A stretch of DNA of 63,516 nt, the filler included, from Asterionella formosa (Eukaryota), in NCBI GenBank assembly GCA_002256025.1. It is 16 parts of 16 records of this genome, joined end to end, with 100 filler letters (N's around TTAATTAATTAA, not from the genome) between each part and the next. Parts side by side here need not be neighbours in the genome. Positions count along the whole stretch, not along the records: positions 1 to 16,306 come from NKIB01004986.1; 15 more parts are not named here. One strand, given 5' to 3'. The position numbers and the translations under genes were made by a program. Below are positions 2-42,807 of this stretch, piece after piece (the first letter of the stretch is position 1; each line of letters starts with the position of its first letter). The notes under the pieces were generated by a model, which saw only the letters and a program-made list of their open reading frames with translations, was not told the DNA's origin and made no database searches.

Positions 2-1503
2 AATGAAGCTTTTACTAAGGATCGTGACTCCATATTCCTTGATAATGGTACTCTTGGAAGTGCTGCTCATCGATACTGTCAACAGCTTGTTGAACTTCTG
101 GCAGGTCATCATGACGAAGTTCGACAATACTGTCGTGCTGAGCGAGTGAAAAGCCATGGTCTCAGGAAAGGGTCTGCTACCCATGCAACAAGTGGAACCA
201 CTGTTCCTCCACCACTTCCATCAGTGGCTAGACGAGGTGAATGGAGCCAAGGAACTATCTTTGACATATATTTTTTGTTTGCAGAACCTGGTGATCAATA
301 CCTTGGGCGATGTCTTGCAGGCCTCCCACCTAATGCAGTTGATTTCGCGGTTCTCCCACCACATTTCATTTATGGTATGGAAAATGATGATGTCAAGCAG
401 GCATTACAGATATGTTTTGGTTGCATCATTGACTTGTATGAGGAGAGACAAAGTGGGGGTATAGTTGGTGTTTTACTCTACTTCCTTGCATCAGTTGTTT
501 ATCACATGGATGCCTTTGTTAAACCTGTAATTGAGAAACAACCAAACCACCCATTTTCAGCAATTCCACTATTGCAATATCCTGGCCTCCTTCAGCGCTT
601 GCAAAAATTTGTGACACTTGATAGAACTGACAACATGCCCCAAGCCACAGGGATCCCACCACATATTGATCACTCACAAAAATTGAGTGAGATTCTTCTA
701 AAAGTCACTCAGATAACATCAATGATGATGCATCAGACAGAGGAAATCAAAGCTTCTGTAGTTCAAGCAATTGAAGAGCATGACATCCGTGGTGGTGTCA
801 TTACAATCGATTTTCTAAACAATCGGTTGAAAGAGCATCACAAACAGCTTGAACAGGTGCTTTGTGATCATCTTCAACAAGGTGGAATAACAAATGATCA
901 GGTAACTCGACCACTCCCTGAACAAGAACACCAACAAGATGGGATAGATCATACTTTGTACTGCTACGATGGAAAGTTTTGGCAGGTTCCAAGGGGTTGG
1001 CAGTTTCCTGAAAAAATTCTCCGCCAGACAGGGTGGAGTCTATGGCTAAATGGACAACCGGGCATTGTCAGAACATTTCGCCTTCTTGATCCACCGTCAC
1101 TATCCCCTGACAAGAAGCTCCGGGATAGACTGAAATTAGAGTGGAGACCAATTTTCCAAATGATGGAACAAGCACCAGACATGGAGATTCCAACAGGGTC
1201 ACACAATGTTACACCAGAATTGTTGAGCAATCATTTCTGCAGGGAACTTATTATCTCAAGGCAAGAGCTGGATATGTTTGGGAGCATTCAACAAGACCTG
1301 AAGTTCTTACTATCAGCTCATGGTCTAAACATGTTCAGCGGAGTAACATTGAGAAGTTTGGGAATGATAATGACCATTACAATCTTCCACCTCCAGATCG
1401 GCACAATGCTCCCCACAGCAATATACGGCAGCGGCGGCGCCAGCTTGCACCTAAGGTACTTGATCAAAGAAGAAGAGTTCGTCAGAGACACAATTCTCCT
1501 TGA
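2..1503 (+). pseudogene. Crypton (CryptonS-like) tyrosine recombinase, 5'-truncated by the window edge and frameshifted near 1225
   Basis: The frame is open from position 2. It contains YR catalytic motifs SHGLRKGSAT...RRGEWSQG...DIY (HxxR, W, Y) followed by GDQYLGRCLAGLP, and a C-terminal VPRGWQFP...WSLWLNG block. The plausible C-terminus (EQSFLQGTYYLKARAGYVW...ISSWSKHVQRSNIEKFG) lies in another frame ending at 1503. Candidate TATGG terminus at 1668-1672. Confidence 0.75.
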
Positions 1504-5480: not shown

Positions 5481-7600
5481 TATTGCTGAAGGCAATACAC
5501 GCCCAAGGTGGTCTCTTGCCTGCGAGTATACATGTGGTCGAGGCCGGGTGGCGCGAGTAGGTTGACCGTACGAGTGGCGCCCCCGGCGCTGCGAGAGCGC
5601 TGCGAGAAGGTCACCCTACGAGTGCCATCCCAGTCGAGTTCACATGTATACGAGAAGGCAAGTAGCCGCCGAGAAGGGTATTGTTGAGGCAATTCCCGCT
5701 CTAGCTATCGTCGTGTCATTCGCTTACCTACTGCCCACAAATTTAGCATAAATGTCAATTTTAGCCTACTATTGCCCATCATATAGAATATATTTTTTGT
5801 ATATTTCCTATCTTCACCTCGAAAATTGCCAAAGGTCCGATATTGCCCATCATTAAAATATATTTTGTATATTTCATATGTTCGCATTTTGGCAAGACAA
5901 CAGACGCCAATTGCCCCTCGGTTTTCCAGCCCTGGGATTGCCGAAATCGGCAAGGGGTCTACTTAAGGAAACCATTTTATATACTAGACAGACTTTAATA
6001 ATTTATATCTAGAATTCACCTCGTTTTTGTTCGTCTCCTGAAAAGTGGACTCCGGCAATTCACCTTTCACCATGCCAATCGTCGTCCATCATGACCGGTT
6101 TGAAGCGAAATCAGTTCCGCGATGACGCCAGTAGCGATTCTTTGCCTGAAGGATGCGGTTGATTGTTGGATTGCTTGTCTTCTCGAGGCATTCATGTAGT
6201 CGCATCGTCCATTTTTCGTCGGAAGAACGATGATATCGATACATCTGATGGTTGTGACATGTTTTTGCTCCGGTCATGTATGTAATGATGCTTAACGGAT
6301 ATTCTCGTCTAAATACGTACGTGGTACTAAAAACAACCATGCATGCTTTAACGCTTACTTTGAAAACGTTATAATTTTATCTCTGTAGACTCGGTATTAT
6401 TTTTACGAGACCTGAAATGTTGAATTATATCGTTCACATATTCATTGATTTCACGTACCGTATGCCCGATTTCGTCCTCACAAATATAGTTCTCACTCTA
6501 TCTTGCCTGCCTTTGCTCTATTCGGGCTTGCAATAGGCAACGTTTGTCTTTCTTTGATCCCATCGTCTGCTGCTTGTTATGCTAGTTGAAGCGGATTGGT
6601 AAGTACAACAGTGAAACACTGAATGTGGATTGTAGATCGTATTTATCGACTTTCCGATTTGATTGCTTCCGTGGTTTGTTTTGATCGCTTCCATCGTTGT
6701 TTGTCCTTACGCACTGTCGTTTTGTTTCGATTGTACATATCTACATGAGAACCAATGAATTTATCAATGACTACTCATTGAAGATGTGGTATTGTGTCGT
6801 TGTTGATTTGTATAGTCATTGACAATGATGTCAATATTGCCGCCAAGCAATGCTTTTCTTGTACTAACGCGCTTTGCTACATTTCTACTGCGAGTTAGTA
6901 TCACAAGCTACATGAATACTCAGCTAGAGAGAGTCAATAGTGCTGGAGCAGCGTGGCGATCATGCTTGCTCAGAATGGAATGATCGGGGTTGCTTGTTTG
7001 GTGGGCGGAGAGGAATGACTGTGGCGGAAATACTGCTACAGGTGTCAGGCTACTACAGCTATGCGCATGGTTGCAGCAACCAGACCATTGACGCTAAATA
7101 ACGATGCAGGTCTACATTGGGTTGAGCTTTTCTTCTTCTTATTTCGGTCTTCGATTGTATGGCGATGGAAAGTCAATGTTGCCTGTGTAAGTACTACAAT
7201 GATTCACAATGCATAGCTACGTCTCCATTGGAACTCTTATTTTTTATTTCATTTCTAACCCAAATTTTTTTCTATTTCTCATTTGATGCTACTTATTACA
7301 TCGCATTTCATACTTTGGTTGCTCCAAACATCATATTCAATTTTCATTGATGTTGCATGTTACAATCATTCTCGTGTTTTTTACGCTTGTTGTACCATCT
7401 CTATGCATATTACCGATATTCTGGTTGTCATGCTAAAATCGGCAATTTTCTTGCCGTAAAATTCGATGTGCCCCATATTGCCCTTTAATACCTTAAATAA
7501 AAATTACTTAAGAAATTACTTAGAGCCTAAAAATTACTTTGAAGTACCCGAATGGCAAGACGATAGCTGGAGCGGGAATTGCCGTAGCACCGCAGCAGTG
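5481..7600. mobile_element. Unclassified non-autonomous element with asymmetric inverted termini and a terminal long hairpin
   Basis: 35-bp inverted repeat at 5688-5722 and 7549-7583 (3 mismatches). Outer ends are TA(T/C)TGCTG and CAGCAGTG. Bases 5481-6056 recur at 58242-58804 in an unrelated context. No intact ORF; no TSD seen. Confidence 0.65.
5491..5685 (+). other. ~190-nt rod-like stem-loop (ssDNA or RNA) with repeated CGAG/CGAG tandem G.A motifs
   Basis: Nested complementary blocks: CAATAC/GTATTG, CTTGCC/GGCAAG, GTATACATGTG/CACATGTATAC, GGGTGGCGC/GTGCCATCCC, GTAGG/CCTAC, TGACC/GGTCA. CGAG faces CGAG between the blocks. Second copy at 58252-58435. Confidence 0.8.
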
Positions 7601-8054
7601 GAATATTCTCACCAGCTTCTTTGGTTATGTATATAGCTCGTATGTACCACCTAATTCTTTCTCAAGCTGTCCTCATCAGTCATGCATCGATTTTACACAA
7701 GATCCATCCTTTACATTCTATATGAATTTATATAGCTGATTTATAACTTTTTATACATAAATTCAATTTTCACAAAAGCCCTTTCATCACTAAGGGTATA
7801 TGACCCAAAATATGTGTTTGATTTAATGCATGCATACACAAATATATACAGAGATGATGGACAAAAGTTCCGGTATGACTGAATGAATTTGGAAATTGCA
7901 TGTAGAATTGAACGACATGAGGTGTAAGCGGAACTATTTCCCTAAAAAAAAGCAGGATTCTAGAATTATAAACAAAACGTACCACAACAAAGAAAAAGGC
8001 GTATTTAAAACACATGTGCGATTAAACAATCAAATCAACGAGAACAAATCAAAC

Positions 8055-10260
8055 ATGGCGAATATCGCACCTTCACTCCATGCTTCATTCGCCAATACCC
8101 ACCATGATGCTCCAATTACGAGTGAGTATGCCGTACAAGTTGAGCTCATTAGGAATGGATTCTGTCCTTATCATCCAGACATTCAGCTTCGCAAAAAGAA
8201 TGCGTTTGGAGGTTGGACGACTGTACGAGACAGCTGCCCTAGATGCGATCGTATGAATACCCAAGGGCCCGCTGCTCCAGTGACTCCAATGCAAACCCAA
8301 GAGCAGCCTCCTTTGCCAGCAACAAAATCTCAGCCTCCAACCCAAATTCCAACCACTTCAATTTCGTCTCCGATTGCTGCAATTCTTTCAAAGATGAAAA
8401 TCAATAAGCAGGACGCTGACATTCAAGGAGATGGTCTCAAGGAGCTTGCAGACATGGCTTTTACTAACGAATACAACAAGGTGTCAATTGTTGCAGCAGG
8501 AGGTATCACTACGATACTGACTGCGATGACGAATCATTCCTCAAATGCTACTGTGCAATACTATGGTTGTGGAGCACTTCGGAACTTGGCTAGGAATGAC
8601 AGCAACAAGGTGACGATTGCTGCAGCAGGAGGTATTCCTAAGATTTTGTCTGCGATGAAGACTCATTCATCCCATGCTAAGGTGCAAGAGAATGGTTGTG
8701 GAGCACTTAAGTACTTGGCTGTGAATGACAACAATGAGGTGACCATTGCCGCAGCAGGAGGTATCACTACAATTCTGTCTGCAATGAACACTCATTCCTC
8801 TGATACCAATGTGCAATACTATGGTTGTGGAGCACTTCGGAACTTGGCTAGGAATGACATCAACATGGTGACGATTGCTGCAGCAGGAGGTATCACTACG
8901 ATTTTGTCTGCGATGACAACTCATTCCTCCAATGCTAATTTGCAATACTATGGTTGTTTAGCGCTTATGTGGTTTGCTGAGAATGAAAACAACAAGGTGA
9001 CGATTGCTGAAGCTGGAGGTATCACTACGGTTTTGTCTGCGATGAAGAATCATTCATCCCATGCTAAGGTGCAAGAGAATGGTTGTGGAGCACTTAATAA
9101 CTTGGCTAATCATAATGACAAGAACAAGGAGACGATTGCTGAAGCAGGAGGTATCGCTACGATTCTGTCCGCGATGAAGACTCATACGTCCACTGCTAAG
9201 GTGCAACACTATGGTTGTGGAGCACTTATGCACTTGGCTGAGAATGAAAACAACAAGGTCAAGATTGCTGAAGCAGGAGGCATCACAGCGATTCTGTCTG
9301 CTATGAAAAATCATTCATTCGATGCTGATGTACAACACTATGGTTGTTCAGCACTTTGGAACTTGGCTGAGAATGAAAACAACAAGGTGACAATTGCTGC
9401 AATGGGAGGTATCAATACGATTATGTCTGCAATGACGACTCATTCCTCCATTGCTACTGTGCAACACTATGGTTGTGCAGCACTTATGAACTTGGCTAAT
9501 CATAATGACAAGAACAAGGTGACGATTGCTGCTGCAGGAGGTATCACTACGATTCTATGTGCAATACTATGGTTGTGCAGCACTTATGAACTCGGCTTCT
9601 AATAATGGTAAGAACAAGGTGACGATTGCTGCAGCAGGAGGTATCACTACGATTCTATCTGCAATGGATAACCTTTCCTCAAATGCTAATGTACAACACT
9701 TTGGTTGTGGAGCACTTAGGAACTTGGCTTATAATAATGATAACAACAAGGTGATGGTTGCTGCAGCAGGAGGTATCCCTATGATTCTGTCTGCTATGAA
9801 GACTCATTTATCCAATGCTAACGTGCAAGAGAATGGTTGTGGGGCACTTATGCGCTTGGCATTGAATATAAACAACGAGGTCATGATTGCAGAAGCAGGA
9901 GGTATCACTACGATTCTGTCTTCGATTAAGACTCATTTCTCCAACGCTGATGTGCAAGAGTATGGTTGTGAAGCACTTTGGAACTTGGCTTTTAATGACA
10001 ACAACAAGGTGGCAATTGAGGCAGCTGGAAGTATCACTACAATTTTGTCTGTAATGAAGACTCACTCTTCCAATGCTAATGTGCAATACTATGGTTGTGG
10101 AGTGCTTTGGAACTTGGCTTTGGATAATGACAACAACAAGGCGGCAATTGCCGATGCTTGTGGAAAAAGCGCAATTGAGTCTGCTATGCGAAATCACTTA
10201 TCCAATGCTAGTGTTCAAGAAAAAGGCAATGGAGCACTTCGCATTTTTATCCAACATTAG
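8055..10260 (+). pseudogene. Armadillo-repeat protein (N-cap plus 14 repeats of 43-44 aa) with an N-terminal CxxH...CxxC domain; frameshifted near 9558
   Basis: Repeat consensus NKVTIAAAGGITTILSAMKTHSSNANVQxxGCxALxxLA in ORFs 7896-9602 and 9526-10260. Repeat 9 lacks ~32 nt (ATTCTAT|GTGCAATAC), which shifts the frame. N-terminal motif CPYHPDIQLRKKNAFGGW...CPRC. Likely start ATG at 8055. Confidence 0.85.
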
Positions 10261-11088
10261 ACATAGACAATATGGTTATATGTATGAGAATCAATTAGTA
10301 TTAATTTTTGTATTTAATATGTAACTGTTACAAGTTTATAATCATTTAGTGTTCATTTTTTTAAAATTCGACTCGGAAACTTCATTTATTATGTACTTCT
10401 TTATTGAACTTTTCTTGACCGATACAGACATGTTGAGCGATGCTCTTTTTGTAAACTTGTTGGTTTGCATTGCTTACACCAATACAGAAGGATTCATCAA
10501 CATGGAGATGGACAGCACACAATCACAACCTCACCTTGACTATTCCTAGGGCTTACGTGTCGTGCTAACATGCACTCCTATGCCCAAACACTTGTGACTT
10601 TTTCAGGCTGTATCATTTGTACACAACTCAACATTATGTAACATTGACAATTAGTTATCATTATACAACAAACAATAACATCTCACTAGACAATAACAAT
10701 GAGGAGAAGTTTGATAAAGCCTTGTCAACATAAGATGTACAATCAACCACAGCTCATAATTTTGACTACTAGATTAGACTAGACTTTAGAGGACCACCAA
10801 GAAATCATCTTTTGAAAATACAACCACTACTACTAAAAAATATCAGGCACATAGTTTCTATATGATTGTAATCAATAGTAAGTAATAAATAGACACCCAC
10901 AACATCAAACAAATGGTTAACAATTTATCCATTTTTGCTAATGAATGTTTCCGATGTTGTACTTCAATGAAAAAAGGATTTAATGAATTATACCCCCCCA
11001 CTGCTACAATGTATTATGAATTGACAAAACACAAGCTAAAAAAGGGCTAACACCGAATCATATTTCCGAGTGAAATACAATACTTGAT

Positions 11089-11980
11089 TTACTCTTTGGC
11101 ACTTTGAGTTGCTTCTTCCTTCCTCTTAATCGTCTCAAGCATGGCCGCAAATGCAGCTTCCTCGTACAACTTCTTTGCATCTATAGATTCACTTCCTCCA
11201 TCAAGGGGGCCCTCAATTTCCATAAAGATTTCACCCAAGTTCTTGATACCATAGGCACGTTTTTCACGATCATCTTTACTGATTGCATGATCGAAGCACA
11301 CCATCTTGACGACTTCATAAATGGTAGTAGAAATGTCCACTGTTGTTTGAGTCCACAAGACACTCAATAAGGTGGATGACATGGTGGCTTCCAACCTATC
11401 CTCAATCGCTTTCCTCTCTTCATCTGTTGTGGCAGTCTCCAAGTCCTTCTGTAGCTTCTGCTGGACCCTCAACATGTCAAATCCAGTTTTGAGAGTATCC
11501 ATCTTGGCGTCCTGAGCATCTTTCTTCTTCTGAATAATATTGGCCTGCTGTCTTGCGGCCCAATCTGCAATAGATAGCATGCCAATACCAGATTCTGCTG
11601 ATCCCAAGAACTTGACTGCAGCCAAGTTGTATACCTAAAAAGTACTAGTATACAAATGTAAGTTAATAATGACAGTGGCAGAAATTTGGTTGTGACAAAA
11701 ATAGGTTTTAAGAACAAAACAAATGTACATATATACCTTTCCAAGTAAATGGATCAATGGAATACCATAACTGGCAGTTGATAGGACTTCCGCTTCCGTA
11801 ATCCACATGGCCTTGCAAAAATCAAATTCTCCCAGCCACCCATGGTTTCAATTCGCTTGCCAGTTTCAATGCCAATCTCAAGACACGACACTTCTGCAAT
11901 TCCCGCGCATTGGCGAGACTAATCTTGGGTGAATCTCCAATCGAGGCAGATGTTGCTTGCCACAGCCAAGCGTCCAATAG
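11089..11980 (-). pseudogene. DnaJ-X domain protein fragment (Caj1/Djp1-like; J domain absent), frameshifted
   Basis: RVLRLALKLA...ASYGIPLIHLLGKVY...LWTQTTVDISTTIYEVVKMVCFD...REKRAYGIKNLGEIF matches the DnaJ-X pattern. GT-AG intron 11635-11736 splices in frame. Frameshift near 11830; no HPD/J domain upstream. Confidence 0.7.
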
Positions 11981-12594
11981 TATAGTCATTGATCTTGTCA
12001 GAACCAAACAAAAATGCAAAAGCAAAGGATAGCAGGATTGCTTGGTGAATTCAAATGGGCAAAGTTTCTAGGCTTCAGTGGAGTCCAAATATGATTTGTT
12101 TGCTTGTTGCTGGATGTTGCTGTTGCTATACTACTAGATATGGGTGATTTCAGGGGGGAGAAGCCTCAAATGATGAGCTCTTGTCTGACTGGATGTTGTT
12201 GCTCAGTCCCAAGTCTTTGAATTTGGTATAATAAATAAGTATCTACTTCTGTTGAAAAGTTCTGTTGAAGATTCACATCCCTTAATTCCCTCCTTTTGTA
12301 GCAATACTAATATAGTAGTTGAAGCTTGTTGCTTCTTTCCGCTACCTCCATGATGTCTAGTTGTTGTTCTCCAGTTTGGTGATTTCCGTTCTTCTCCTAC
12401 ACTAGTCATAGTTCATAGTACTTCTATTGGTGGAATTAAAAGTAGTAAGTAGAGCAACTTCTGTAAATAATGTTCGAGGAGAAGCAAAGAACTACTAGGT
12501 GATGTCACAGCCCTGTAAACATCACGAAATTTTTGATCATCACAACCCCAAGCAACTTCCACTCCGTCTTAGCTGCCTCTTCAATGGGATATAA

Positions 12595-12823
12595 ACCAAA
12601 TTCCAACCACTTCAATTTCTTCTAAGTTTGCTGTAATTCTTTCAAAGATGAAAAGGAATGAGCGGAATGCTGATATTCAAAAAGAAGGGTTTACAGAACT
12701 TTGAGACTTGGCTTTTAAGGACAACAACGAGGTAACAATTGCTGATGAAGGAGGTATCCCTATTATTCTGTCTGCGATGAAGACTCATTCTTCCAATGCT
12801 AATGTGCAATACTACGGTATGGT
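12595..12823 (+). pseudogene. Truncated paralogue of the ARM-repeat gene, interrupted by a Copia LTR
   Basis: CCAAATTCCAACCACTTCAATTTC...ATTCTTTCAAAGATGAAAA matches 8342-8400. One ARM repeat follows (GGIPIILSAMKTHSSNANVQYY), with an in-frame stop upstream of it. Confidence 0.85.
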
Positions 12824-15800
12824 TGTTGGAGAAATTATTTTAGGAAGGAAAATCCCGGCATGAATTACCTACTACATATTGAGTCTAATGAATCAAAAAG
12901 AATATGGTACCAGAAAGAACAACTCAGAATTCGAAAACAATCTGCATCGCCAGTAAAACCCATAATTCTCCATAAACTCTTAGGAACGATTACAATAGAT
13001 TACGGATAAATCGTTGTTCATATCTACAGCCTATTTGGTCCCTGACGTGGACGCAATTTGAACAGTTTTAGTAGAATTACCGGCCAGGAAGCGCTGTAAG
13101 TTTACAATCAACAACAGGCGGACCGTTGAGAGTCCGGAGACAAGATTTGAGGGTACCAGACCATCCAGAATCTGAAGAAGTCGCACAAGGCGCATCATGA
13201 GTGACAAAGGAAAGTTTACCAAGAAGGCTCAAGCCAAGGGAGGAAGCAACAAGGCTTCTCACACCATCAAGAAGTCAGTTAATGACTATAACTACTACCT
13301 TGGATCAGCAAAGCAAGAATCTGACTATGAGACTACTACTGAGTACCTCATCAACTATATCAAGAAAGTGTTTGACTATGGCAACAACATAGGAACCGCT
13401 CTCGAGTCATTAGAACCGATGAGCACAATGGCATGGAAGCCAAGTATGCAAGTGAGCATTGCAACAACAGAAGAAGATCGCGCTGCAGAGAATCGGCAAT
13501 TTCAGATCGAGTTTTAGTAGGCCGATTATGACCTACAGTAAAAGGGTACAGGCCTGCGAAAATAATAATATCAAGGCATTTGCGTTGATCTGGGAATGAT
13601 GCAACAAAGCCATGAAGAACAAAATTGAGGCGAGATCTGATTACAATAGGATCAAAAATAACCCAATAACATTGCTTATGGCAATTAAAGAACACGCACT
13701 AAATTTTCAAGAAAATCGATATTCAATGTCAATCATTTTAGATGCGATGAGAACGCTTTTATTTACAAAGCAGAAGGAAGTAGAAAGTCTACAAGACTAC
13801 ACCAAGAGATTTCGTGTGGCTCGAGATGTGCTCAAGTCACACATGGGAGGACCCATTATTCTCACCAAGTTTGTTGAAGCCATGGACGGATACAACAAGA
13901 CCAACATCAAGCAATGAGATAAATTTCGTGAACAAGCTTTCAGTCAATTTTTATGGCATATTTATATCTCGATAATGCCGACAAGGCCAAATATGGATCA
14001 ATTATGACCGGGCTGAACACTCAACAGTCACTCGGCAACGATCAATACCCGAAGACCATCACCGAATCAAATAATGTTCTCAGCAACCATCGGTTTGACG
14101 TAACAAATAAATCCAACTACAAGAAACCAGGAGAGAATGATAAAGAGAGGAAACAAAAGGATGCAGGCAAGGAAGACGAAGATGTGAGCTTATCGTTTGC
14201 ACAGTTAGAAGGAAAATATTACTGCTGCGGATAAGCAGGTCACAAATCTTCTTTGTGCCGAGACAAGAATAAACCCAAAGAGGAATGGGCTATCAACAAG
14301 GCCCAAAGCCATGCACAGGCACAGGCTAATACATCCGACACGAGTACAGTTACCTCTGTTAATTCCAACAACCCGCCGTCATCACAAGCTTCACAACAAG
14401 CAAATGCCAATCAATTTGGATGGACTGGAGCTCATATGAAACTAAAATTTTACCAAGCATCTGAGATGCGTGACTGGATACTATTGGATAATCAATCAAG
14501 TGTCACAGTCTTTTGCAATCCAAAAATGGTTAATAACATTCGAAAGTCAACCAACGGAAGCATGCACCTGGCCACAAATGGTGGATCCATGGTAACTGAT
14601 ATGAAGGCTGATCTTCCAGAATGGGGAGAAGTATGGTTGAATGAAAAGGCAATTACAAACATCTTCAGTTATGCCGAAATGGCAGATAGGTACAGAATTA
14701 CCTACTACTCTGAGAAAGAAGATGCATTCATTGTTCATTTGCCTGACAAAACAGTTCGATTTGAAAGAATTGGGATGAACTTATATGTTTTCAAGCCAAC
14801 TACAAGAATTAGAGCGGAGAATGCTCAAATGTTAAATACACTTGAAGAAAACAAAACATTTTACACTGAGCGTCAATTTGAAAGAGCCAAGCAAGCTCGT
14901 GATCTATTTCATGCCTTGGGTACACCATCAATTAATGATTTCAAGGCAATAATTTGTATGAATATGATCAACAATAATCCAGTGACTACCGATGATATCA
15001 AAATTGCAGAGAAAATTTTTGGACCCAACATCGGAACACTGAAAGGCAAGACAACTCGTTGCAAGCCGCTGCCAGTCGTGAAAGGAGCTTATCCAAGCTC
15101 AACGCGAAGTGACTCTTTGCATGGATGGAATGAAAGTCAATGGACAATCATTTCTCACAACAATTTCTCGAAACATTATGTATAGGACAAGGCAATGGGT
15201 CAAGAATCAGACAGCTGATGTCCATCGAGACGCTTTGACCCAGGTATTCCGTGTTTATAATACCGGAGGATTTAGAATAACAAGAATCCATTGTGATAAC
15301 GAATTTCTACCTTTGATGGAACAGCTTTCCAATGAATTTCAAGTCACTATGAACTACGCAAACCCACAAGAACATGTTCCTGAAGCGGAACGAAATAGTC
15401 GAGTGATTAAAGAACGCGTGTGCGCAGCTTATCATCAATTACCTTTCAAACATTTGCCAAGACTGATGATTAAGATGCTAGTCACAGAATCTGCAAAGAA
15501 GCTGAATTTCTTTCCGGCAAAGAACGGATATCCCCGTATTACAGTCCTTGTATGATTCTACATCAAAGAAACCTGGACTATGCTCAACATTGCCAGTATA
15601 CATTTGGCACTTATGTCCAAGCACATGAGGAACCAGTGTTTTCAAACACTAATGCACCACCCAGCCTAGATTGCATTTATCTACGCTACAATGACAACGT
15701 GCAAGGAGGTCATGAATTATTACACCTACCTACAAATTCATTGATCACTAGACGAACAATTACTCCTCTACCACTTACCCAAGCAATCATTAATCAAGTA

Positions 15801-16306
15801 CACGCCCTTGCTGTGCAGGAAAATATGCCAGATGGTCTCAAGATATCAAATCGAACAAGACAACTATTTTATGATAGTGCTTGGATTGCAGGAGTGGATT
15901 ATGATAATGAAGCATTTGAAGATGCACAAGACGAAGATTATGAAGATCAAGATGCTAGTGACAACGAAAGCAATGATGAAATTCTCGGAGAAGAAGACTA
16001 TGATGAAATGACTCCAGATGAAATATATGAAGCAGAACAGCTCGAATTAAATGACAATACTCAAGAGGATGACCCTGAACCTGACGAGGGCAACAATGAG
16101 AATAATATTGAAATGAATGCAGATGATATCCAAGATGAGGATGAAGAGCCAGCAAATGAAACTGAAAATGAAGAGGCATTGTTAGAAGTCAATCCAAGCA
16201 CTCAGGATGACTCAGACCCAAATGTTAGAACTACAAGGTCTGGAAGAGTCTCAAGACCACCATCAAAACTAACTATGGTCCAAAATCATTTGCATACCCA
16301 AGCACA
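12824..16306 (+). mobile_element. Ty1/Copia (diatom CoDi-type) LTR retrotransposon, decayed; truncated at the contig end before RT
   Basis: Putative 5' LTR TGTTGG...CTACA (12824-13028) and candidate PBS TGGTCCCTGACG. gag starts at 13197, with a degenerate knuckle YYCCG*AGHKSSLC. Protease WILLDNQSS, pre-integrase LFHALGTPS, integrase IHCDNEF...EHVPEAERN. Several stops and frameshifts. Confidence 0.9.
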
Positions 16307-16406
16307 NNNNNNNNNNNNNNNNNNNNNNNNNNNNNNNNNNNNNNNNNNNNTTAATTAATTAANNNNNNNNNNNNNNNNNNNNNNNNNNNNNNNNNNNNNN
16401 NNNNNN
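16307..16406. other. Artificial contig linker N44-TTAATTAATTAA-N44 (first of 15)
   Basis: Identical 100-nt spacers with stops in all frames also start at 32708, 33819, 34930, 36041, 37153, 38264, 39375, 40486, 41597, 42708, 59077, 60187, 61297 and 62407. Confidence 0.98.
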
Positions 16407-32521: not shown

Positions 32522-33918
32522 CGTCGCGGTCGATCAAGTTGCAATTCAATAATGTGGCATGGGAGCTACTGGTATCCATGTATCATATATACCGTTTTAT
32601 CGAATTTAGCTCGTCCCTACGGTATTTTGAATGTATCACCACCATGCCGCTACGTGCTATTTGTCCCCTTGTGATTAAATAAATAAATAAGTGTATCATG
32701 TAATAATNNNNNNNNNNNNNNNNNNNNNNNNNNNNNNNNNNNNNNNNNNNNTTAATTAATTAANNNNNNNNNNNNNNNNNNNNNNNNNNNNNNNNNNNNN
32801 NNNNNNNGGAAAGACGACGACTGCTGCTGGTTACAACGAAGGCAGTGCTTGTGGTTGCTACTGATGCAACAAGGCAAGAGAGGAGGATGGCAGCTTGCGA
32901 ATACATTATGATGATGAGGATTTCAATATATATTTTACCGCTAATAGTAGAAGTGATGGGTTCAGACGGACAAGAACCATAAAATATCTTTCATTGCAGC
33001 TTCTTGACATTGATGAAGCAAAGGATATGCAAACGACTACGGTGCCGGTATTACAGGTTCCTTCATGCTGTAGAGCCTACCGGTACTAGGTACCGGTAAC
33101 TGTTTTGGATAAGGAAACAACGTACCGGTTGCTACCGGCATGTAAGTATTAGTACATACATGTATCATTAATTTTTATCCTACTTACTATCAGCGCCTAC
33201 AGTATCACGCAGTCATGATTATCCTCATGTGTACCTGTAAACCACATGCTGAGCGATGATTACTATGAATATCATGTTGTATGTATGTACTAGGTGCGTA
33301 GGAAGCCAATGGTCAAGAAGCAATGGCTAGGGATGGCACGCGCTACTATCATGTCGTCTGTGGCGACATGTTGTGCCAGTATAGGAGATACAGACATACG
33401 ACATACAGGTTACTAAATACTAAACCACAGTCCTGGTCCCTGTACAAGAATGGTACCGTACCAGGGTACTAGGTATCATTCATAGAAAAGAAGTACGCCA
33501 GCACCTGGATTACCTATGTAGGACCAGTTACCGTACTTTGCTTGAAAGGACATGGTAACTGGTACCAGGGTACTACATGGTACAAGTACCTGGTTGCCTA
33601 CCAATATCAAGACCACCCAGTCATTATCACATGCTGGTGTCAAGGGTAATACCATACATAGCTATACTAGGGGTTCAAGTGATGAGGAATATGGATTCCA
33701 TGACACTTAAATGAGTCGAATCATGTGTTGCCATGCCAATCCCTCAGCTGGCAATGAGATTGAAGATTGACGATTGCTATAGTGATCTAATTCCAGTCTT
33801 GTCAACAAGTGAAAATTCNNNNNNNNNNNNNNNNNNNNNNNNNNNNNNNNNNNNNNNNNNNNTTAATTAATTAANNNNNNNNNNNNNNNNNNNNNNNNNN
33901 NNNNNNNNNNNNNNNNNN

Positions 33919-34088
33919 TCGAAAACAATCTACGCCAACAGTAAAAACCCATAATTCTATTAAAACTCTTAGGAACGATTACAATCGATCGCGGAGACAT
34001 CGTTGTTATATCTACAGCCTATTTGGTCCCTGACGTGTCCTTACAGGATACAAGAAAGCATATAGTGCTTCGGGACGCAATTTCAACA
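33919..34088 (+). mobile_element. Copia LTR 3' part, PBS and leader (same family as 12824)
   Basis: Aligns with 12931-13064 and 62520-62676 (…ATATCTACAGCCTATTTGGTCCCTGACGT…GGACGCAATTT). Confidence 0.85.
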
Positions 34089-34751
34089 CCCTTGTTCAAG
34101 TCAAGTTCCACAGGCGATCTTTCCCATCTTTCCCGCCCAGCCACGAGAGTCAAAATGTCACGCATGATGTCAACTTCAGATATTACCATTCAGCAAGAAA
34201 CCAACTGTACCAAGAACGGCGGCATTTTGGTCGTCAAGACACAAGCAGATTCGCTGCACTTGGAGCAAAACGACTCCAACTACAGAGATATGCGCCGTTG
34301 GAGGCGTCAAAATCTAATTGGAAAAGGCGTCCGATTTGGAGCCTGCGAAATTAGAGGATACCCTGTTACGCTAGGCGACAATCCCGGGGGATATCGGGGA
34401 CCGCCTCTCACGCTGAGTTGGGACCACTACGGGACCATTTGCATGCCCCTCGAAGAGTTTGAATCTCAACATCCACCTCGCCGGACCGAATCTCAAATGT
34501 TTCTCCCTCTGTCGGTTCGCGAAGATTTACTGCGCAATGCCGGCTTTTCATTGGGGGATATCCGAGCGGGATCGGAGGAAGTGGATAAAATCAGAGGGCA
34601 GCGAAGGCGAACTATAGAGCGACTACAGTTGACTGTACTGCGAGAACTGACGGAGAAGCTATTACGCGGCACTAGCAACGTTATTTTTCGATATGGAAAG
34701 AAAAGTGGGAGTAATCATATTTGCAGCATGCGATGGAGGTTCACCAAATGA
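34089..34751 (+). CDS. Diatom-typical uncharacterised domain protein (VRF...EIRxY...LGDNP...GPPLTLSW family); 5' end joined to a Copia leader
   Basis: GVRFGACEIRGYPVTLGDNPGGYRGPPLTLSWD...EEFE...RR...LPLSVREDLL; family recognised by motif only. Confidence 0.65.
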   Translation, partial: PLFKSSSTGDLSHLSRPATRVKMSRMMSTSDITIQQETNCTKNGGILVVKTQADSLHLEQNDSNYRDMRRWRRQNLIGKGVRFGACEIRGYPVTLGDNPGGYRGPPLTLSWDHYGTICMPLEEFESQHPPRRTESQMFLPLSVREDLLRNAGFSLGDIRAGSEEVDKIRGQRRRTIERLQLTVLRELTEKLLRGTSNVIFRYGKKSGSNHICSMRWRFTK

Positions 34752-35656
34752 AAGTGCAGCAGGAAGAATCAGAGGATGTACTAATTGACGAACTGCATGT
34801 TTAGAATTCATCAGAGGATGATGAGGAACATCCCCCATGGGATTTTTAACTTTGGTAAAGGACACTGAACAGACATTCTATTTCAGTGATTTTTGAATAT
34901 TATTTCATGATAACAATTTGTTTGCATGTNNNNNNNNNNNNNNNNNNNNNNNNNNNNNNNNNNNNNNNNNNNNTTAATTAATTAANNNNNNNNNNNNNNN
35001 NNNNNNNNNNNNNNNNNNNNNNNNNNNNNGCCTGAAAAAATCAAGGATGTTGGGCCTGCAAACTAACGATGGATCTGTTCGCTCACAGGGAGCATCCAAA
35101 GAACAAAAACAAATAAATGATTCTCGTGCTTGCTGTCATTCTACGAAAAATTTGTATAGTTTTGATGGTTGCTGCTGTTGACATTGTATATGGGGAGCTG
35201 GACGGACGCACGCTTCCTACAATCATGAGCAGTACATACTCTTTGTGCAATACATGTACACCAGACCGGTACCAGGTACCTTGTACCGGAGTAGACTACC
35301 ACCAGGCACTAGGTCTTACGATATAATTGGAGAACTACCTTATCTCTTCCTGGCTCTCCAGATTCCTGTCCCCCTCGCCCTTTTTCGGCACTGTTGATCA
35401 CCCTGGGAAAACATAGAACATCAACTGAAAATACTACGAACTCAAAGAAATGGCATGACAGGTAAATAGGACAAAGTACTTCGCTTTTTCAACCATTTGT
35501 CGCCAGTTGGTACTCTCGTCCAACTTTTTTAATAAGCTAAATAAATGTGAAATTACAAAATATGATGTATCGAAGATGGAGGAGCCAGTCACTAGGGGAC
35601 TAAGAAATACCAATTCATTCCAGGTGCACTTCATGAAAAATCCAAAAAGGAATTAC

Positions 35657-35727
35657 TGCACCAACCGGGAATCGAACCCAGGGCAAACGCTTGGAAGGCG
35701 TTTATGTTACCACTACACCATTGGTGC
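35657..35727 (-). tRNA. tRNA-Gly (anticodon TCC)
   Basis: GCACCAA acceptor stem, D arm, anticodon arm AACGC-CTTCCAA-GCGTT, GGTTCGATTCC T-loop, 71 nt, downstream oligo-T terminator. Confidence 0.95.
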
Positions 35728-36414
35728 CTTTCTGATGTAGTACGAGAGGGTAAAACGGTTTATAAAATCTGTCATTTTACTATGTTACAGGATATATAAT
35801 TTAATGTAGGCAATGATAATAGTACATATATATCAAACTTTTAGAATACTGGTATTCCCGGTAAGACGACCTGAAAAACAACGATGTGACTTCATACACA
35901 ATAAAATATGCCTTGAGACATGAGACTACCGGTACATGAATGATAAACGGTATCATGGTCTTCTGCTATGAATGTAGGCTTTTGGTCCTGATCAGTTAGT
36001 TATAAAGGTGATCCGTTCCACCCTCAAGGAGGCCCACTCANNNNNNNNNNNNNNNNNNNNNNNNNNNNNNNNNNNNNNNNNNNNTTAATTAATTAANNNN
36101 NNNNNNNNNNNNNNNNNNNNNNNNNNNNNNNNNNNNNNNNCTTTGCTCATTGTGATGTCGAATGGATGCTGTAGCACTACTTATGAATTGATTTTGGCAT
36201 GGGTATGAACCAACCAAATCCAGAGATGTCAACAATAGTCTTCAGGTCGTTCCCCTTTCCCTTTCTTGTCCTTTTTGAATGACAAAACCGGTACCGGTAG
36301 TAAGGCAGAAGAATGCCAATGCACCAGGAATCGGACATTTTGGTATCATCATGTACCGGTAGTACCAGGTACATGGTACCAGATATTTCTGGATTTTATG
36401 CCGGGGTAGACTAC

Positions 36415-37152
36415 TGTTAAAGTGAGCTCATCTACGTAGTTAGGACTCGGAGTCAAACGAGTCAAACGATTCGAATGAGTCCACTTTGATGTACCAAGCT
36501 CTCATCAACCACACATTATACTTTGCTACTCCGACTATAATGAGCCGGACAACATAAGCTATTTCGGAAGACCGATAGTTTGAAATGAATGATCATGGTT
36601 AAATACCTATGATCAGTAAGTGTGAGATAGACATGGGTCTATCTATGATTGTATGTTCCTAGAAATGCAAACAGCATTTGGAGAATAGTTCGTTTGTTTT
36701 GTTCAAACAGAACAACCTAAACTAGATTAGTAAACTCACAATAAGAATATAGAAACGGAAAGAGAAACGAACGTCTCTATCTATAGTCTTCTTTGTCTAA
36801 CGATATAGATCTATACAAAAGGTAATACTTTAACACGTTTATAAACGGACTTAAGTGTTTTTAACATGTCTACAGAAATGTCTGAAGAGAGCATGAGGCT
36901 CATCAAGTTTGATGGCAACGAAACGAACTGGTACCAGTGGAGCGTTAAAACGCTCGCTCTGGCGAAGGCAAGAGGATTCCGAACGATGTACTCCAAGAAC
37001 CACAACCCGTGTTCTGACGAAGAGTACGAATTGGAGACAGACAAAGGAGTCAGGGCTATCTACGAGGCCAACGACAAGGCGTACCAGTTGCTCATCATGA
37101 GCTGCACCGGAATCGCCTTCGGACTCGTAAACCAAGCCAAAACGAAAACGTT
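36415..37152 (+). mobile_element. Copia-type element (second family): 421-bp 5' LTR plus start of gag
   Basis: LTR 36415-36835 with perfect 9-bp inverted ends TGTTAAAGT/ACTTTAACA. ORF from 36866: IKFDGNETNWYQWSVKTLALAKARGF...ANDKAYQLLIMSC (Copia gag N-terminus). Confidence 0.8.
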
Positions 37153-39474
37153 NNNNNNNNNNNNNNNNNNNNNNNNNNNNNNNNNNNNNNNNNNNNTTAA
37201 TTAATTAANNNNNNNNNNNNNNNNNNNNNNNNNNNNNNNNNNNNNNNNNNNNTCTTTCCCGACTCAGTGCATCAACTGGGCTGCCTTAGCCAGCATCACA
37301 TCTCTGTCTGCATTGATCTTCTTGAATTCGAGGTCTTGATCTAGCTCGGACTTTTTCTTGAATATCTTTTCTTTTAGAAGTGCAATAGTTTCTCTGCTTT
37401 CATGATGTTCATCTTGATGTTCTGGACTAATAGTGAGACATATTTCTTGGTTTTGCGACTTTTCAACGACCATTTCTACTTCAGAGCTGATGTCTCCCAC
37501 ATTTCCGCCGGTATTTTCATTCATCGCGTGAATTTGTTCATCAGATGAATGAGAATCACTGAGTTCTTCTTCATTATCAGCGATTTCAGGAGAATTATTA
37601 GCAAAATATGACACTGGATGGAACTGTGACTCTGTAGGAATAGAGTCTTCATCCGCGAAGAACAACTGTTTGGGTTTCCTCTGCTCTTCTTTGAAAGCAA
37701 TCTTTCCTTCTTTTCAATCTCTTCCACTATTGTATCGGCATACTCGCTTCATCATCTGTCTGGAGTATTATGAGTCTTTTCAAATTCATTTGTTATTTGA
37801 GTGTATTCAAAGGAATCTTCGATTGATTTAATTAGTTTCTTCATCTTCTTTTCCGAAAACATAAAGTCGTGTAGCGTAAACAATGGAAGTAAGTCACGTT
37901 TCTTGTTTGACTGACCCTTTGCATGAAATCCATGAAATTAATTCCATTTGGAAAGTTTTCAAAGGGCCAGAAGACTATGATGTAAGACAGTGGAAGGGAA
38001 GCGCGGAGCTTTTTGCGGCGCTTGTGGAGGTGCAGCTGGTGTGATGGTAACCGAGTGTAGTAATTGTTGAACAGAGCACAGCAGTGTAATATGCGTATGC
38101 CGGCATGTGTATTGTTTACACAGTACACAAGCCGGCAAAATACAGCTATAACAAGGAAAAACGACACAACAATGAATGTGATGGCTGGTTGTTGAGGATA
38201 CCGGTATGTGATATGCATCAATCCATATCACAAATCATATTATAGTGATGTACATATCAACGCNNNNNNNNNNNNNNNNNNNNNNNNNNNNNNNNNNNNN
38301 NNNNNNNTTAATTAATTAANNNNNNNNNNNNNNNNNNNNNNNNNNNNNNNNNNNNNNNNNNNNATGGTGATGCTTTCGAGCGACGTGACGAAAGTGGTTT
38401 TGAATGAGAAAAAGTGAATCAATTTTGATCCTTTGGTGCTCGCTCAGTTCGCTCTGGCTTGTCCTCCTCTGATTTTGAGCTCGTACCATCCATCAGGTAC
38501 CAGGTAGGAGTACCGGTAGTACATAGCCTGTGTAAGAATACTTAGCAAATGCAATCTATGCACTAACGGAGCATGACTGGAATTTCCTTTTTGGCTTCAT
38601 ATTTTAATGTTAGAGATAGTGTACTATTACTATACAAAAGGAACATATCATATACTTATTCTTCAGCTTGCTTTTACCCGTATATTGATTCGCCAGCTCG
38701 CTCGCTTTCATGCAACTAAGTTCATCCTCCTCGCCGCGTGGACTTGTCCACGATCACGATTATCTCAAGAAGGCACTCATTCAGTCTTCTCCAGTATATA
38801 CCGTATTCATTTTATTTCTCCCTTATTCATAGATCTATAAATATGCATATTTATACCGTCTCTACATGCCTCCTTTGCTTGACGTCTTGCTTGTGCTCGA
38901 CAATTCTCCTTCGCGTGGTCCTCCACGCTCCGTTTCAAATCTTTATCGTACTTAATCTAGTCTTTCTACAGAGACGATAACAATAGAAATTTGCTCCTCA
39001 CTTTTTACTCCCTTCGCTCATCTGTCGTGTTTTGTAACGATAGCAGCATTATAATTATGATGGAAGCTGAAGGGTGTTCAAATCTCTCCGCGAAAGCTCT
39101 GTTTTTGTCACTTCTTTGTGTCGTCATAAATCACAACAATGATCCTTGGCGACAGAGCAACTATGACAACAGGCAGTTTGTTCCAACGTCGCAGCCTTCG
39201 GCGCAAGCGTTTTTCGAGGGAAATACTACTCATAAAATGAGAATATTAACACGATTAGTGAGATCTTTTTGACAGCTTAAACATGATTTCCAATTCTTTG
39301 ACTATTAGCTACAAAGTTCAGACCAAGTCCAAGCAGTTGCCCCTAAATGCGATTTCCTTTGCGCTCCAGTTTGTNNNNNNNNNNNNNNNNNNNNNNNNNN
39401 NNNNNNNNNNNNNNNNNNTTAATTAATTAANNNNNNNNNNNNNNNNNNNNNNNNNNNNNNNNNNNNNNNNNNNN

Positions 39475-39960
39475 GATTTCAGCTAAAATCTCCTGGATGT
39501 CATCTGCCTCATCACTTCCAGGTAACCCAGAAATATCCTTATCAACTTTATTTTCGTCCATGACATAATTGTGCAAACGTGCACATACCTCAAGCACTTT
39601 TGCAGTTGTTTCCAAGCCAGTTGTTAAGTTTCTTTTTAGAACAGCCCATTTTGTCTGTAACAAACCAAATGCCATCTCTATCCTAATCCGTAGCTGGGAA
39701 AGAAAGAAATTATAGGCATCTTGTGTTTGGTCATCACGCTGAGAACCAACAAATGGAACTAACATGACATCTGACAATGTATATGCTGCATCACCAACAA
39801 GATAAAAACCAGAATCAAATAATGCAGTTTTGTTGGGTAGAGCAGTTCTCTCAAATGCAACTTGATCACTGCATCGTCCAGGAGCAATCACCCCAAAAAA
39901 TATAAATCTACTCTCAACATCACAGATAGCCTGAACATTGATACCATAAGACATGGTGCT
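39475..39960 (-). mobile_element. PIF/Harbinger DDE transposase fragment (HARBI1-like)
   Basis: YGINVQAICD...PGRCSD...YLVGDAAY...YNFFLSQLRIRIEMAFGLLQTKWAVL...CARLHNY; N-terminal half missing. Confidence 0.9.
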
Positions 39961-40585
39961 GATTGCTTGTAAACTTGAAAGGGGATGATGGCAAGCGGAA
40001 GTGTAAGAAGAAGTGTATAGAGGATCTTGCATGTCTGTGTTGACTCATGGCAAATCAAGAATTAAGCAGGTATGTCAGCTATATAATCCATACTGCTACA
40101 TAATACGCGTAGTTTTCCAACATGGTTTTAGTAATGGAAAATTATCGAAATAATCTGGAGGGAGGCCTGGAGGGATATGCACATGATTGTAGCCAGCCCG
40201 TAACCATTGAATTTTCGTGATACTTTTTGGGTGATACAATTTCATTTTTATTTTTGTGGAGAATGGTTTTTTTGGTTTAAATCGAGTAGCCGTTACATGA
40301 TACTTTTTCAAAAAAAATGATACCAAATCGAAAATGATAAGAACGACCCTAAGGGAGAGTGAAAATATTCGAAGTTCCTACGGGTGAATAGTCGTACGAT
40401 CCCGGTATGAAAGTATCTGATGGGTTTCCGGGTTCGTTTTCGGTTGTTGTTGGATTCGATTTGTAACTTGCTTCAGATGCCGATGNNNNNNNNNNNNNNN
40501 NNNNNNNNNNNNNNNNNNNNNNNNNNNNNTTAATTAATTAANNNNNNNNNNNNNNNNNNNNNNNNNNNNNNNNNNNNNNNNNNNN

Positions 40586-41313
40586 CAGGTATGACGAAGA
40601 GCAAGATCGACCCTATGTTATTTATGCACCGGAACAAGGATGGACAAATTGATGGTCTACTTGTTAATTACGTGGATGACGGTATTGTATGTGGGACTCC
40701 AAGTGCAGTGGAGTATATGAAAAATGTTATCAAGGAAGATTTCAATATTACCGAGCAGGGTATTCTACAGAAACACCTAGGAGTGGAATATGTTTGGAAA
40801 GAGGACAAGTATGGTGAATACGTGAAGGAACAGATTCATACGAGATTGTCCGAACCAGTTCAGAGTGGAACGATGTTACAGCCTCTTGAGCGTGGCAATG
40901 GGGAGGATGTCAAGAATATTAGCCCGAGTCACAAGGATTGTGGACTCGATTGTAATCGAACGAGTCGAATATTGCATTGCCACGTCAATCAGCTGTCTAA
41001 CGAGATCAGAGATTGAAGATTTCTATGGAAATGTTAAGTGGAAACTCGAAGAGAGTCTTAGAATGACTTTGCAGGAAGCAAAGATGCGTGGAAAGGAAAC
41101 ATTTAGTTTAGCTTATAATTTAATTTGAGATTTAGATTATCAACCGAGGAAACAGTGTGTTAATTGACAGGAAGGTCAATTAGTCTATCTAGCAGGAAGG
41201 CTAGAAGCAGAGACAAGAGAGAAAGTGAGTGGTACTAGGTAGTACTACGATCACGTAAGAGTCTACGTGAAGAGAGACCCAACCCGCGGGAAGGAGTACG
41301 GACCATTTCAACA
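40586..41313 (+). mobile_element. Copia reverse-transcriptase fragment and probable 3' LTR (41158-41313)
   Basis: KSKIDPMLF...LLVNYVDDGIVCG...FNITEQGILQKHLGVEY (YVDD motif). A purine-rich GAGGAAACAG precedes a TGTT...AACA segment. Confidence 0.75.
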
Positions 41314-41696
41314 CATAGGTACCCCTGGTACTGGTTTATGAAATCGACATGGTATACCTGGTATACGGGTATAGATAGAGGCAATATAAATCGTGCTGTT
41401 ACCTGGAACCAGTTCCGGGTTCCTCCCGGTATTTTGCATTGACACGTGGACATGATCAGCCAAAGGCGGAAGCAAACAAACAAACAAATACAAACAGCCA
41501 AGCAAGCGTCCAAGAAACAAGCAATGCTGCGTGGCACGCCTTTGTTGTTGCGCCGGCAGGGGCCGTCGGAACTTCCTGCTCGATTTTGTAATAAACNNNN
41601 NNNNNNNNNNNNNNNNNNNNNNNNNNNNNNNNNNNNNNNNTTAATTAATTAANNNNNNNNNNNNNNNNNNNNNNNNNNNNNNNNNNNNNNNNNNNN

Positions 41697-42707
41697 CTCT
41701 GGAGACATTGCTGTATTGCTTGCATCCGGCATACCGACTACAACATCCTCCTGTGGCAGGGTTGGCTTTTCCCATGTAGTTTCTTGGGTGTCAGCATGAT
41801 AGTAGTATGTCTCACCACTGTTGGGGTCTACCTGAGCCACCCATCCTGAAGGGAGCAACCCCTCAACTGATTTATCTTCTATCCTATGAACTGGCTCAGG
41901 TATCATTGTCTCTTGTGCAAGATCGTCAGAAACCAATTCACTTTTCATTTCTGGAGTTGCAGCTTTGTCATCTGAACACAAATCTAGGCATCCATCATTG
42001 TTGTTTACTTGTAGAATTGGCTTTTCCCATGTTATTTCTTGCGTGTCCGCATGATAGTAGTATGTCTCACCACTGCTGGGGTCTACCTGAGCCACCCAAC
42101 CTGATGGAAGAACGCTCCCAACTGATTCATTTTCCAAACTATGAATTGAGACAGTATCCTCATGCTTACTATCGAGATTGTCAGTATACTTTTCATCTTG
42201 ATGCACTAGTGAAATCATTGCGTCTGTCGCGATTGCTTCATCGACAACACTGTCCAGCGACATCATTGGCTTTTCCCATGTAGCTTCATTGGTATCTGCA
42301 TGGTAATAGTATGTCTGCCCACTGCTGGGGTCTACCTGAGCAATCCAGCCCGATGGAAGCAAGCCCTCAACAGGTTCATTGTCCAAAGTATGAACTGGTG
42401 CAGTGACCTCAGTCTCTTCTACAGCATTGACAGTACCCGTTTCATACAGATCCTCCCAAGATATTGCTGTATTGCTTGCGTCCGGAATTCCGACTACAAC
42501 ATCCTCCTGTGGCAGGGTTGGCTTTTCCCATGTTGTTTCTTGCGTGTCCGCATGATAGTAGTATGTCTCACCACTGTTGGGGTCTACCTGAGCCACCCAT
42601 CCTGAAGGGAGCAACCCCTCAACTGATTCATCTTCTTTCCTATGAACTGGCTCAGGTATCATTGTCTCTTGTGCAAGATCGTCAGAAACCAATTCACTTT
42701 TCATTTC
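41697..42707 (-). CDS. Multi-WW-domain acidic protein (internal fragment, 4 WW domains)
   Basis: Four copies of LPSGW(V/I)AQVDPxSG(E/Q)TYYYHADTxExTWEKP; frame open across the whole contig. Confidence 0.9.
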
Positions 42708-42807
42708 NNNNNNNNNNNNNNNNNNNNNNNNNNNNNNNNNNNNNNNNNNNNTTAATTAATTAANNNNNNNNNNNNNNNNNNNNNNNNNNNNNNNNNNNNN
42801 NNNNNNN

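Follow-up and report, generated by a model that had tools for sequence, protein, structure and literature searches.

Variable residues on one face of helix 3 in an armadillo-repeat array of the diatom Asterionella formosa

We describe an armadillo (ARM) repeat gene on the plus strand of a 63,516-nucleotide stretch of DNA joined from 16 records of the Asterionella formosa assembly GCA_002256025.1 (the window). The gene lies at 8055–10260, in the part taken from NKIB01004986.1. Its 14 repeat units share a predicted three-helix scaffold, and the residues that differ between units include six on a single face of helix 3, where replacement differences exceed synonymous ones both in this array and in two related metagenomic arrays. 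This variability pattern is real and goes beyond chance. The locus belongs to a large and lineage-specific family of ARM proteins in a freshwater microalga, and the best reading of the pattern, which we hold with modest confidence, is a diversifying ligand face within that family.

Fold and variable sites of the array

The open reading frame (ORF) begins at the ATG at 8055, a start backed by two relatives with the same initial residues, P0123 and P0022 (MANIAP), and not at 8440, where the range given in the initial annotation begins. The ARM array was read as a single exon and is laid out, as assembled, in two frames:

8055–9602 (+), frame A, ATG to TAA (9600–9602), 515 aa (protein P0002): N-terminal module, linker, cap, units 1–8, unit 9 up to its codon 15, and a further 15 codons out of frame
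8127–8264 (+), N-terminal Cys/His module, residues 25–70, with C36-x-x-H39 ... C61-x-x-C64
8265–8372 (+), Pro/Gln/Thr-rich linker, predicted disordered, residues 71–106 of the translation; predicted local distance difference test score (pLDDT) <50 for residues 68–95
8373–8471 (+), degenerate N-terminal cap unit reduced to helices 2 and 3; it weakly matches positions 11–43 of the unit profile, with model helices at residues 106–137
8475–9512 (+), ARM units 1–8, 129 or 132 nt each; pLDDT about 98, Pfam Arm E = 5.8e-27
9513–9612 (+), unit 9, broken: helices 1 and 2 over 15 codons (9513–9557), stray base 9558, helix 3 and tail (9559–9612) in the other frame
9556–10260 (+), frame B, 234 aa (protein P0001), open to TAG at 10258–10260: helix 3 of unit 9, units 10–13 and unit 14
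9613–10134 (+), units 10–13, in frame B
10135–10257 (+), C-terminal cap-like unit 14, resembling the array ends of the relatives P0003 and L002

An ARM fold had been proposed from the sequence, and Pfam, an AlphaFold model and Foldseek agree on it. P0002 matches Pfam Arm (PF00514) at 93.3 bits against a cut-off of 20.6, and P0001 at 34.9 bits; further Pfam matches are to ARM_LRRK2 (E = 2.5e-25) and ARM_ARMC5. The model has a mean pLDDT of 86.6, rising to about 98 over residues 110–480, and repeats a regular unit of three helices (H1, 9 residues; H2, 11; H3, 14), which occupy unit positions of about −1 to 7, 10–20 and 25–38, respectively. Because the model puts helix 3 at positions 25–38, the VQ motif picked out in the initial annotation is helix 3. 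The best Foldseek match was the engineered ARM protein 4rv1 (E = 3e-14, template modelling scores 0.65/0.79), followed by Vac8, importin-alpha and beta-catenin, while the nearest solved chains by sequence were Vac8, engineered ARM proteins, beta-catenin, ARMC4/ODAD2 and LRRK2. The gene shares its fold, unit anatomy and helix-3 motif ALxNLA with Vac8, importin-alpha, beta-catenin/plakoglobin and the designed ARM repeat proteins (dArmRPs). It is, however, only 14–25% identical to these proteins in structure alignments, and its units are far more alike than those within natural ARM proteins. A Vac8 orthologue was considered, but the similarity (23% identity) extends no further than the generic ARM motif.

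Residue alignment sets VQyyGCgALrNLA of this array against IQvaaCaALgNLA and VQyyctTALsNIA of Vac8 and VQkeaarALaNIA of the engineered proteins. Unit column 37 thereby pairs with the Asn that Vac8 and engineered ARM proteins conserve in ALxNLA/ALxNIA, so column 37 is the ARM asparagine; Asn is present there in 9 of the 14 units. In peptide-binding ARM proteins, extended peptides lie in the helix-3 groove, and conserved asparagines on the concave side bind the peptide main chain, according to an excerpt of PMC4756613. We are confident in the prediction of an ARM solenoid of three-helix units, and the alignment suggests that it is of the peptide-binding type, with a putative Asn ladder on helix 3.

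The residue lists of the initial annotation proved exact. All 14 units, of 43–44 residues, carry the motif VQ-xx-GC-x-AL-xx-LA; the di-residues after AL are RN, KY, RN, MW, NN, MH, WN, MN, MN, RN, MR, WN, WN and RI, and the pairs after VQ are YY, EN, HY, HF, EY and EK, as listed. The variable helix-3 columns are 29, 30, 33, 36, 37 and 40, that is, i, i+1, i+4, i+7, i+8 and i+11. The description of the units as very similar or near-identical was overstated, since the 12 full units have a pairwise identity of 0.80 (0.75–0.90) in DNA and 0.68 (0.60–0.79) in protein. Tandem Repeats Finder (TRF) reports rows of period 129 and 390 with 75–82% matches, the three-unit period of 390 nt reaching 82%. 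Overall, the observation held in large part: it was right on the residues, and not on near-identity, on a confinement of the variation to helix 3, on the start or on a single frame (see below).

That the variable sites lie on one face of helix 3 is borne out by the helical moment of column entropy over positions 25–40, which is 0.66, a value reached by 3 of 20,000 shuffles. The corresponding moment in the independent arrays introduced below is 0.58 (reached by 19 of 20,000). Helices 1 and 2 lack significant one-sidedness, with 17,153 and 2,439 of 20,000 shuffles, respectively. Variation is not exclusive to helix 3, and other exposed sites also vary: the variable columns by entropy are 4, 7, 12, 13, 19, 22, 24 and 26 in addition to the six above, and columns 4, 12, 19, 24 and 26, at 1.6–2.1 bits, equal columns 29, 30, 33 and 37.

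Replacement divergence and the family of units

Units were aligned codon by codon to a profile built from the window units. Metagenome contigs were picked by a 21-base repeat-core pattern, which yielded four short contigs only (L001–L004). These added seven (L001), six (L002), three (L004) and one (L003) full units, L003 and L004 adding little; a protein-guided scan of the metagenome contigs for relatives found none. Pairwise counts were of the Nei–Gojobori type, comparing the replacement divergence (dN) at the six helix-3 face codons with the synonymous divergence (dS) of the whole unit:

Window array: dN 0.68, dS 0.31, ratio 2.2; rest of unit 0.46
L001 array: dN 0.74, dS 0.14, ratio 5.2; rest of unit 0.55
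L002 array: dN 0.76, dS 0.19, ratio 4.1; rest of unit 0.81

The initial annotation had named dN/dS at these sites as one check on its reading, and the ratio obtained by counting methods is above 1 at the six sites in all three arrays (2.2–5.2). The six sites were defined on the window gene, leaving the metagenomic arrays of L001 and L002 as an independent test. In these two arrays the sites rank 1, 2, 3, 5, 7 and 9 of 43 by the proportion of replacement differences (pN), and none of 100,000 random six-site sets had a mean pN this high. Parsimony on a tree of 29 units assigned 123 replacement and 8 synonymous changes to the face codons (ratio 2.9), compared with 0.60 elsewhere in the unit. Within helix 3, the conserved codons lying between the variable ones have the lowest synonymous divergence in the unit: their proportion of synonymous differences (pS) is 0.12, 0.05 and 0.06 in the window, L001 and L002, respectively, versus 0.32, 0.12 and 0.18 for codons 1–26. 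This low pS argues against old differences that were shielded from homogenisation.

A search with P0002 gave 281 proteins at E ≤ 0.001 among 8,000 candidates scored, and units with the consensus NKVxIAxAGGIxxILxAMxxHxxxxxVQxxGCxALxNLA occur widely across protists. Full units, 234 in total, were found in 94 of the 256 proteins scanned, with columns 40 and 36 the most variable. According to precomputed Pfam lists, the partner domains of relatives' arrays are kinase, PARP, ART, caspase, TIR, RING, F-box, BTB, DUF4062, TAZ and others; fusion examples by sequence are P0013, P0018 and P0082, while P0022 and P0047 are ARM genes with an inserted TAZ finger. In L002 the array is followed by a protein kinase domain (Pfam). 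The closest relative, P0003, has the N-terminal module and ARM units and then a stretch in which a kinase-type glycine-rich motif can be seen by eye; a Pfam scan of P0003 returned no kinase. The N-terminal module is common to the closest relatives (P0003, P0006, P0010, P0022, P0047, P0123 and L004). On L003, at 389–1087 (+), an ARM unit is joined to an ORF resembling, by eye, the C-terminal part of a bacterial sigma-54 factor, and this contig is probably chimeric.

The scaffold identity of the window units is 0.86 to L001 units, 0.85 to L002 units and 0.84 among themselves. The window units are thus as close to those of the other two arrays as to each other, and only 10 of the 29 units have their nearest neighbour within their own array, which fits a pool of units shared across the family. 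Paralogues whose N-termini are 60–70% identical differ in unit number and in their helix-3 residues, and L001 and P0003, too, contain units that are broken or duplicated in part.

Such an array might also arise in an ordinary ARM adaptor or scaffold that serves one fixed partner, if purifying selection preserved the contact residues of each unit while gene conversion and the duplication of units homogenised the scaffold DNA; the differences would then be maintained and would not reflect ongoing diversification. Such a protein would suit the standard Vac8/beta-catenin-type motif of the units, the recurrence of unit types in three-unit blocks and a unit protein identity of merely 68%. Exposed sites vary in any solenoid, and many relatives are plain adaptors, for example F-box/Aardvark and Vac8-like proteins. 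It is harder to reconcile with the same six codons leading in two other arrays that have different residue sets, with synonymous divergence being lowest in just those codons that are interleaved with the face codons, and with the differences in unit number and helix-3 residues between paralogues that are alike at their N-termini. We regard a fixed adaptor as possible, if rather doubtful.

The frame break in unit 9 and the status of this copy

The array does not form a single open frame. As assembled, unit 9 is 32 nt short, with 100 nt from the VQ of unit 8 to that of unit 9 where 132 would be normal, and the reading frame breaks at 9557/9558, giving the 515-aa frame A and then the 234-aa frame B, which carries the second part of unit 9 and units 10–14. 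TRF detects the same event as a period of 100 with 2.1 copies and 91% matches at 9458–9665. Four runs, all in the form of unitig-like contigs, were aligned to 7600–10700: X1 and X2 from DNA, and X16 and X8 from polyA-RNA. X1 placed 49,997 contig pieces on the gene at 90% or above, of which 4,577 were at 99% or above; the summed depths of such pieces are not copy numbers. Among the matches listed for the four runs, no contig piece spans 9557/9558 and none shows an insertion or deletion there. Exact polyA-RNA contigs lie at 9359–9486 and 10122–10338 (X16) and at 10073–10286 (X8). Upstream of about 7808 there is no RNA cover, and past about 10340 it is sparse, whereas the DNA runs continue there. 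Together, these matches hint weakly at transcription of this gene, or of one almost identical to it, with the region beyond the break included.

No intact counterpart was found among database proteins of 283–902 aa, nor any allele or orthologue, the best hit being P0003, 60% identical over 67% of the query. Three readings fit the copy as assembled: a gene disabled not long ago, a protein cut short to 8 units, or a slip of the assembly within the repeats. If the gene is dead, through the loss of 32 nt from unit 9 or, equally, through a 100-nt partial-unit duplication, the variability pattern would only record the history of the family. The break itself speaks for this, together with the want of an intact counterpart in that size range, the ARM fragment nearby at 12573–12863 and the broken or partial units of L001 and P0003; given the 9% difference between the 100-nt copies, the event is not necessarily very recent. 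Yet frame B runs on for 234 codons without a stop and ends in a cap typical of the family, the scaffold dN/dS of the window units (0.43–0.50) is not above that of L001 or L002, exact polyA-RNA contigs lie downstream of the break, and repeat collapse in a draft assembly could yield the break by itself. The death of this copy is a serious possibility that falls somewhat short of being probable.

For the family as a whole, a diversifying ligand face remains the reading we prefer. The array would bind extended peptides in its groove, with about two ligand residues per unit predicted, and ligand specificity would be diversified by point replacement on the helix-3 face, with units, whole or partial, also being gained, lost and exchanged. 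Binding may be coupled to a cellular response through the N-terminal module and, in sister genes, through the downstream protein kinase.

Several points count against a diversifying face. The other variable sites (4, 7, 12, 13, 19, 22, 24 and 26) reach a dN/dS(all) of 1.3–1.6. The six sites were chosen for their variability, which biases the window ratio; only L001 and L002 are independent, yet they belong to the same family. The 29-unit tree was built from non-face codons, inflating ratios taken against the global synonymous rate, and a within-codon ratio is fairer. All counts are pairwise or parsimony-based rather than from recombination-aware likelihood. Helix-3 variation is partly inherited in blocks, EN, YY and HY unit types recurring every three units, and the placing of the variable sites on a putative concave face draws on alignment and literature. 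Finally, this copy is frame-broken as assembled, and the RNA contigs could stem from a paralogue and not necessarily from this copy. The diversifying recognition family proposed at the outset is partly supported, by the replacement excess, the size of the family and its variable unit number, and not by the copy at hand, which is frame-broken and in which Pfam finds no effector domain.

Known repeat systems, the N-terminal module and the rest of the window

The largest peptide-binding shifts in dArmRPs map to helix 3 (PMC10684580), and in dArmRP libraries seven pocket positions are randomised, adjacent pockets being formed in part by the central H3 helix (PMC11228518). The N-terminal CHCC module present here is not found in Vac8, importin-alpha, beta-catenin or dArmRPs.

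Among natural systems, the array is reminiscent of the repeats with high internal conservation (HIC) of fungal NOD-like receptors (NLRs), which are of WD, ANK or TPR type (Podospora nwd/het-e). An excerpt of PMC4986451 defines these by an internal protein identity of at least about 85% over at least 100 aa and describes a few positively selected codons in each unit that map to the binding surface, change in repeat number and exchange between family members. Like the fungal repeats so described, the present ones are tandem units with a common scaffold and a replacement excess at a few codons per unit. Unlike them, they are of ARM type, and their identity is 0.68 here, 0.74 in L001 (maximum 0.86) and 0.68 in L002, all below the 85% of that excerpt. 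A Pfam scan of P0002 and P0001 returned only ARM-type families, with no NTPase (NACHT or NB-ARC, in contrast to fungal NLRs) and no N-terminal effector, death or signalling domain, and no kinase ORF was found between the TAG at 10258–10260 and a minus-strand DnaJ-X ORF at 11089–11625. The likeness to fungal NLR sensors on which the initial interpretation leaned is therefore partly supported: it extends to the regime, and stops at the identity below 85% and the missing NTPase.

By analogy with those sensors, the family might consist of immune-like or self/non-self receptors. This would accommodate the replacement excess on the putative binding face, a large family with unit gain and loss, the joining of relatives' arrays to kinase, TIR, caspase, PARP, ART and DUF4062, and the TAZ fingers inserted in the ARM genes P0022 and P0047. 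It sits poorly with a copy in which Pfam finds no NTPase, death or signalling domain and with a repeat identity under the 85% given in the excerpt on fungal repeats, and ARM arrays have many housekeeping roles; we think it unlikely. A broader conjecture, to which we also give little credence, is that diatom-type algae hold a large intracellular repertoire of ARM binders with a diversifying helix-3 face and exchanged units, serving modular peptide recognition against parasites or viruses. Such a system would have its analogues in the repeats of fungal NLRs and the LRR receptors of plants, some of its members having kinase, TIR, caspase or PARP-like fusions. In fungi, plants and brown algae alike, innate recognition is typified by repeat families whose binding face changes on a fixed scaffold; the types described to date are WD, ANK, TPR and LRR repeats. 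Were the pattern family-wide, it would provide candidate receptors in a group with poorly understood defence against chytrids, oomycetes and viruses, as well as natural examples of the modular peptide binders that engineers build on the ARM fold.

The repeats of transcription activator-like (TAL) effectors are two-helix units of 33–35 aa in which a variable di-residue at positions 12/13 reads DNA. DNA reading of this kind is rejected for the present array on its unit length and its three-helix ARM fold; the parallel with TAL effectors, also drawn initially, is an analogy only. The nearest taxonomic analogy is offered by the LRR-ROCO and NB-ARC-TPR candidate receptors of a brown alga, likewise a stramenopile alga, with repeat families proposed to be fast-evolving receptors and a diversification attributed to exon shuffling in the title of PMC3341825; those repeats are LRR or TPR, whereas this ARM array reads as a single exon. 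Phytophthora infestans PITG_10645 is a tyrosine kinase-like (TKL) kinase with 10 C-terminal Armadillo domains, according to an excerpt of PMC3019232. As in that stramenopile ARM-TKL protein, relatives of the present gene pair the array with a kinase (L002) or a kinase-like motif (P0003); unlike PITG_10645 as described there, the L002 array precedes the kinase, and the present copy stops at its TAG without one. A full-text literature search found no description of hypervariable ARM repeats or of such a family in diatoms.

The small N-terminal CxxH...CxxC module pointed out in the initial annotation is real and recurrent. A phmmer search with residues 1–115 gave 139 representative clusters at E ≤ 0.001, often with 2–4 matched stretches per protein, and jackhmmer over the collected proteins found 245 instances in 142 proteins, with the consensus G.C..Hp..qlakk...Ggwk.....CP.C. 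Pfam assigned no family to the module itself, either in this gene or in the 26 carriers scanned, five of which match Pfam outside the module only (ARM families, SH3_15 and DUF7640). By eye, many carriers are Ser/Arg-rich proteins with MORN-like ends; in P0130, P0131, P0143 and P0191, which are Ser/Arg-rich with MORN-like C-termini and have no Pfam family, the module is present 2–4 times. An ESM Atlas search with the N-terminal part returned nothing usable. In the model the module comprises three short strands and a short helix at a pLDDT of 53–68, and it is probably a zinc-binding element of the knuckle-plus-helix kind. A recurrent CHCC module without a Pfam family amounts to an undescribed small domain family, and forms a separate small lead.

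Downstream of the gene lies one further member of the same family:

12573–12863 (+), fragment of a second ARM gene, about two units, found by tblastn with P0001/P0002; ORF 12708–12863, unit match at 12726

This fragment ends abruptly and is followed by a run of plus-strand ORFs at 13197–16358, which may be an inserted mobile element; the 310-aa and 268-aa ORFs among them have no Pfam match. The window is eukaryotic, its long ORFs encoding WW, calpain, JmjC, Suf/CstF-77, MgtE and ion-channel domains (Pfam).

Elsewhere in the window, thirty runs of exactly 44 N occur at 32708–42807 and 59077–62506 (also 16307–16406), in pairs with 12 bases between, and the pairs recur every 1110–1111 nt. A tandem repeat of 1111 nt behind them was rejected, as no repeat of that period lies between the runs, which look like an artefact of masking or assembly rather than biology. 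Two adjacent ORFs of 323 aa each, at 60377–61348 and 61487–62458 (+), are 1110 nt apart, have no Pfam match and fall in this zone of regular N runs. A 351-aa ORF at 41649–42704 (−) encodes four WW domains (E = 1.2e-53) and is made up of four direct repeats, each about 249 nt long; the outermost two are 96% identical and the inner two about 62%. Lastly, a 1258-aa ORF at 50932–54708 (−) has Pfam matches to a calcineurin-like phosphoesterase and to AAA_23/SMC_N, and may encode a fused Mre11/Rad50-like or SbcCD-like protein.

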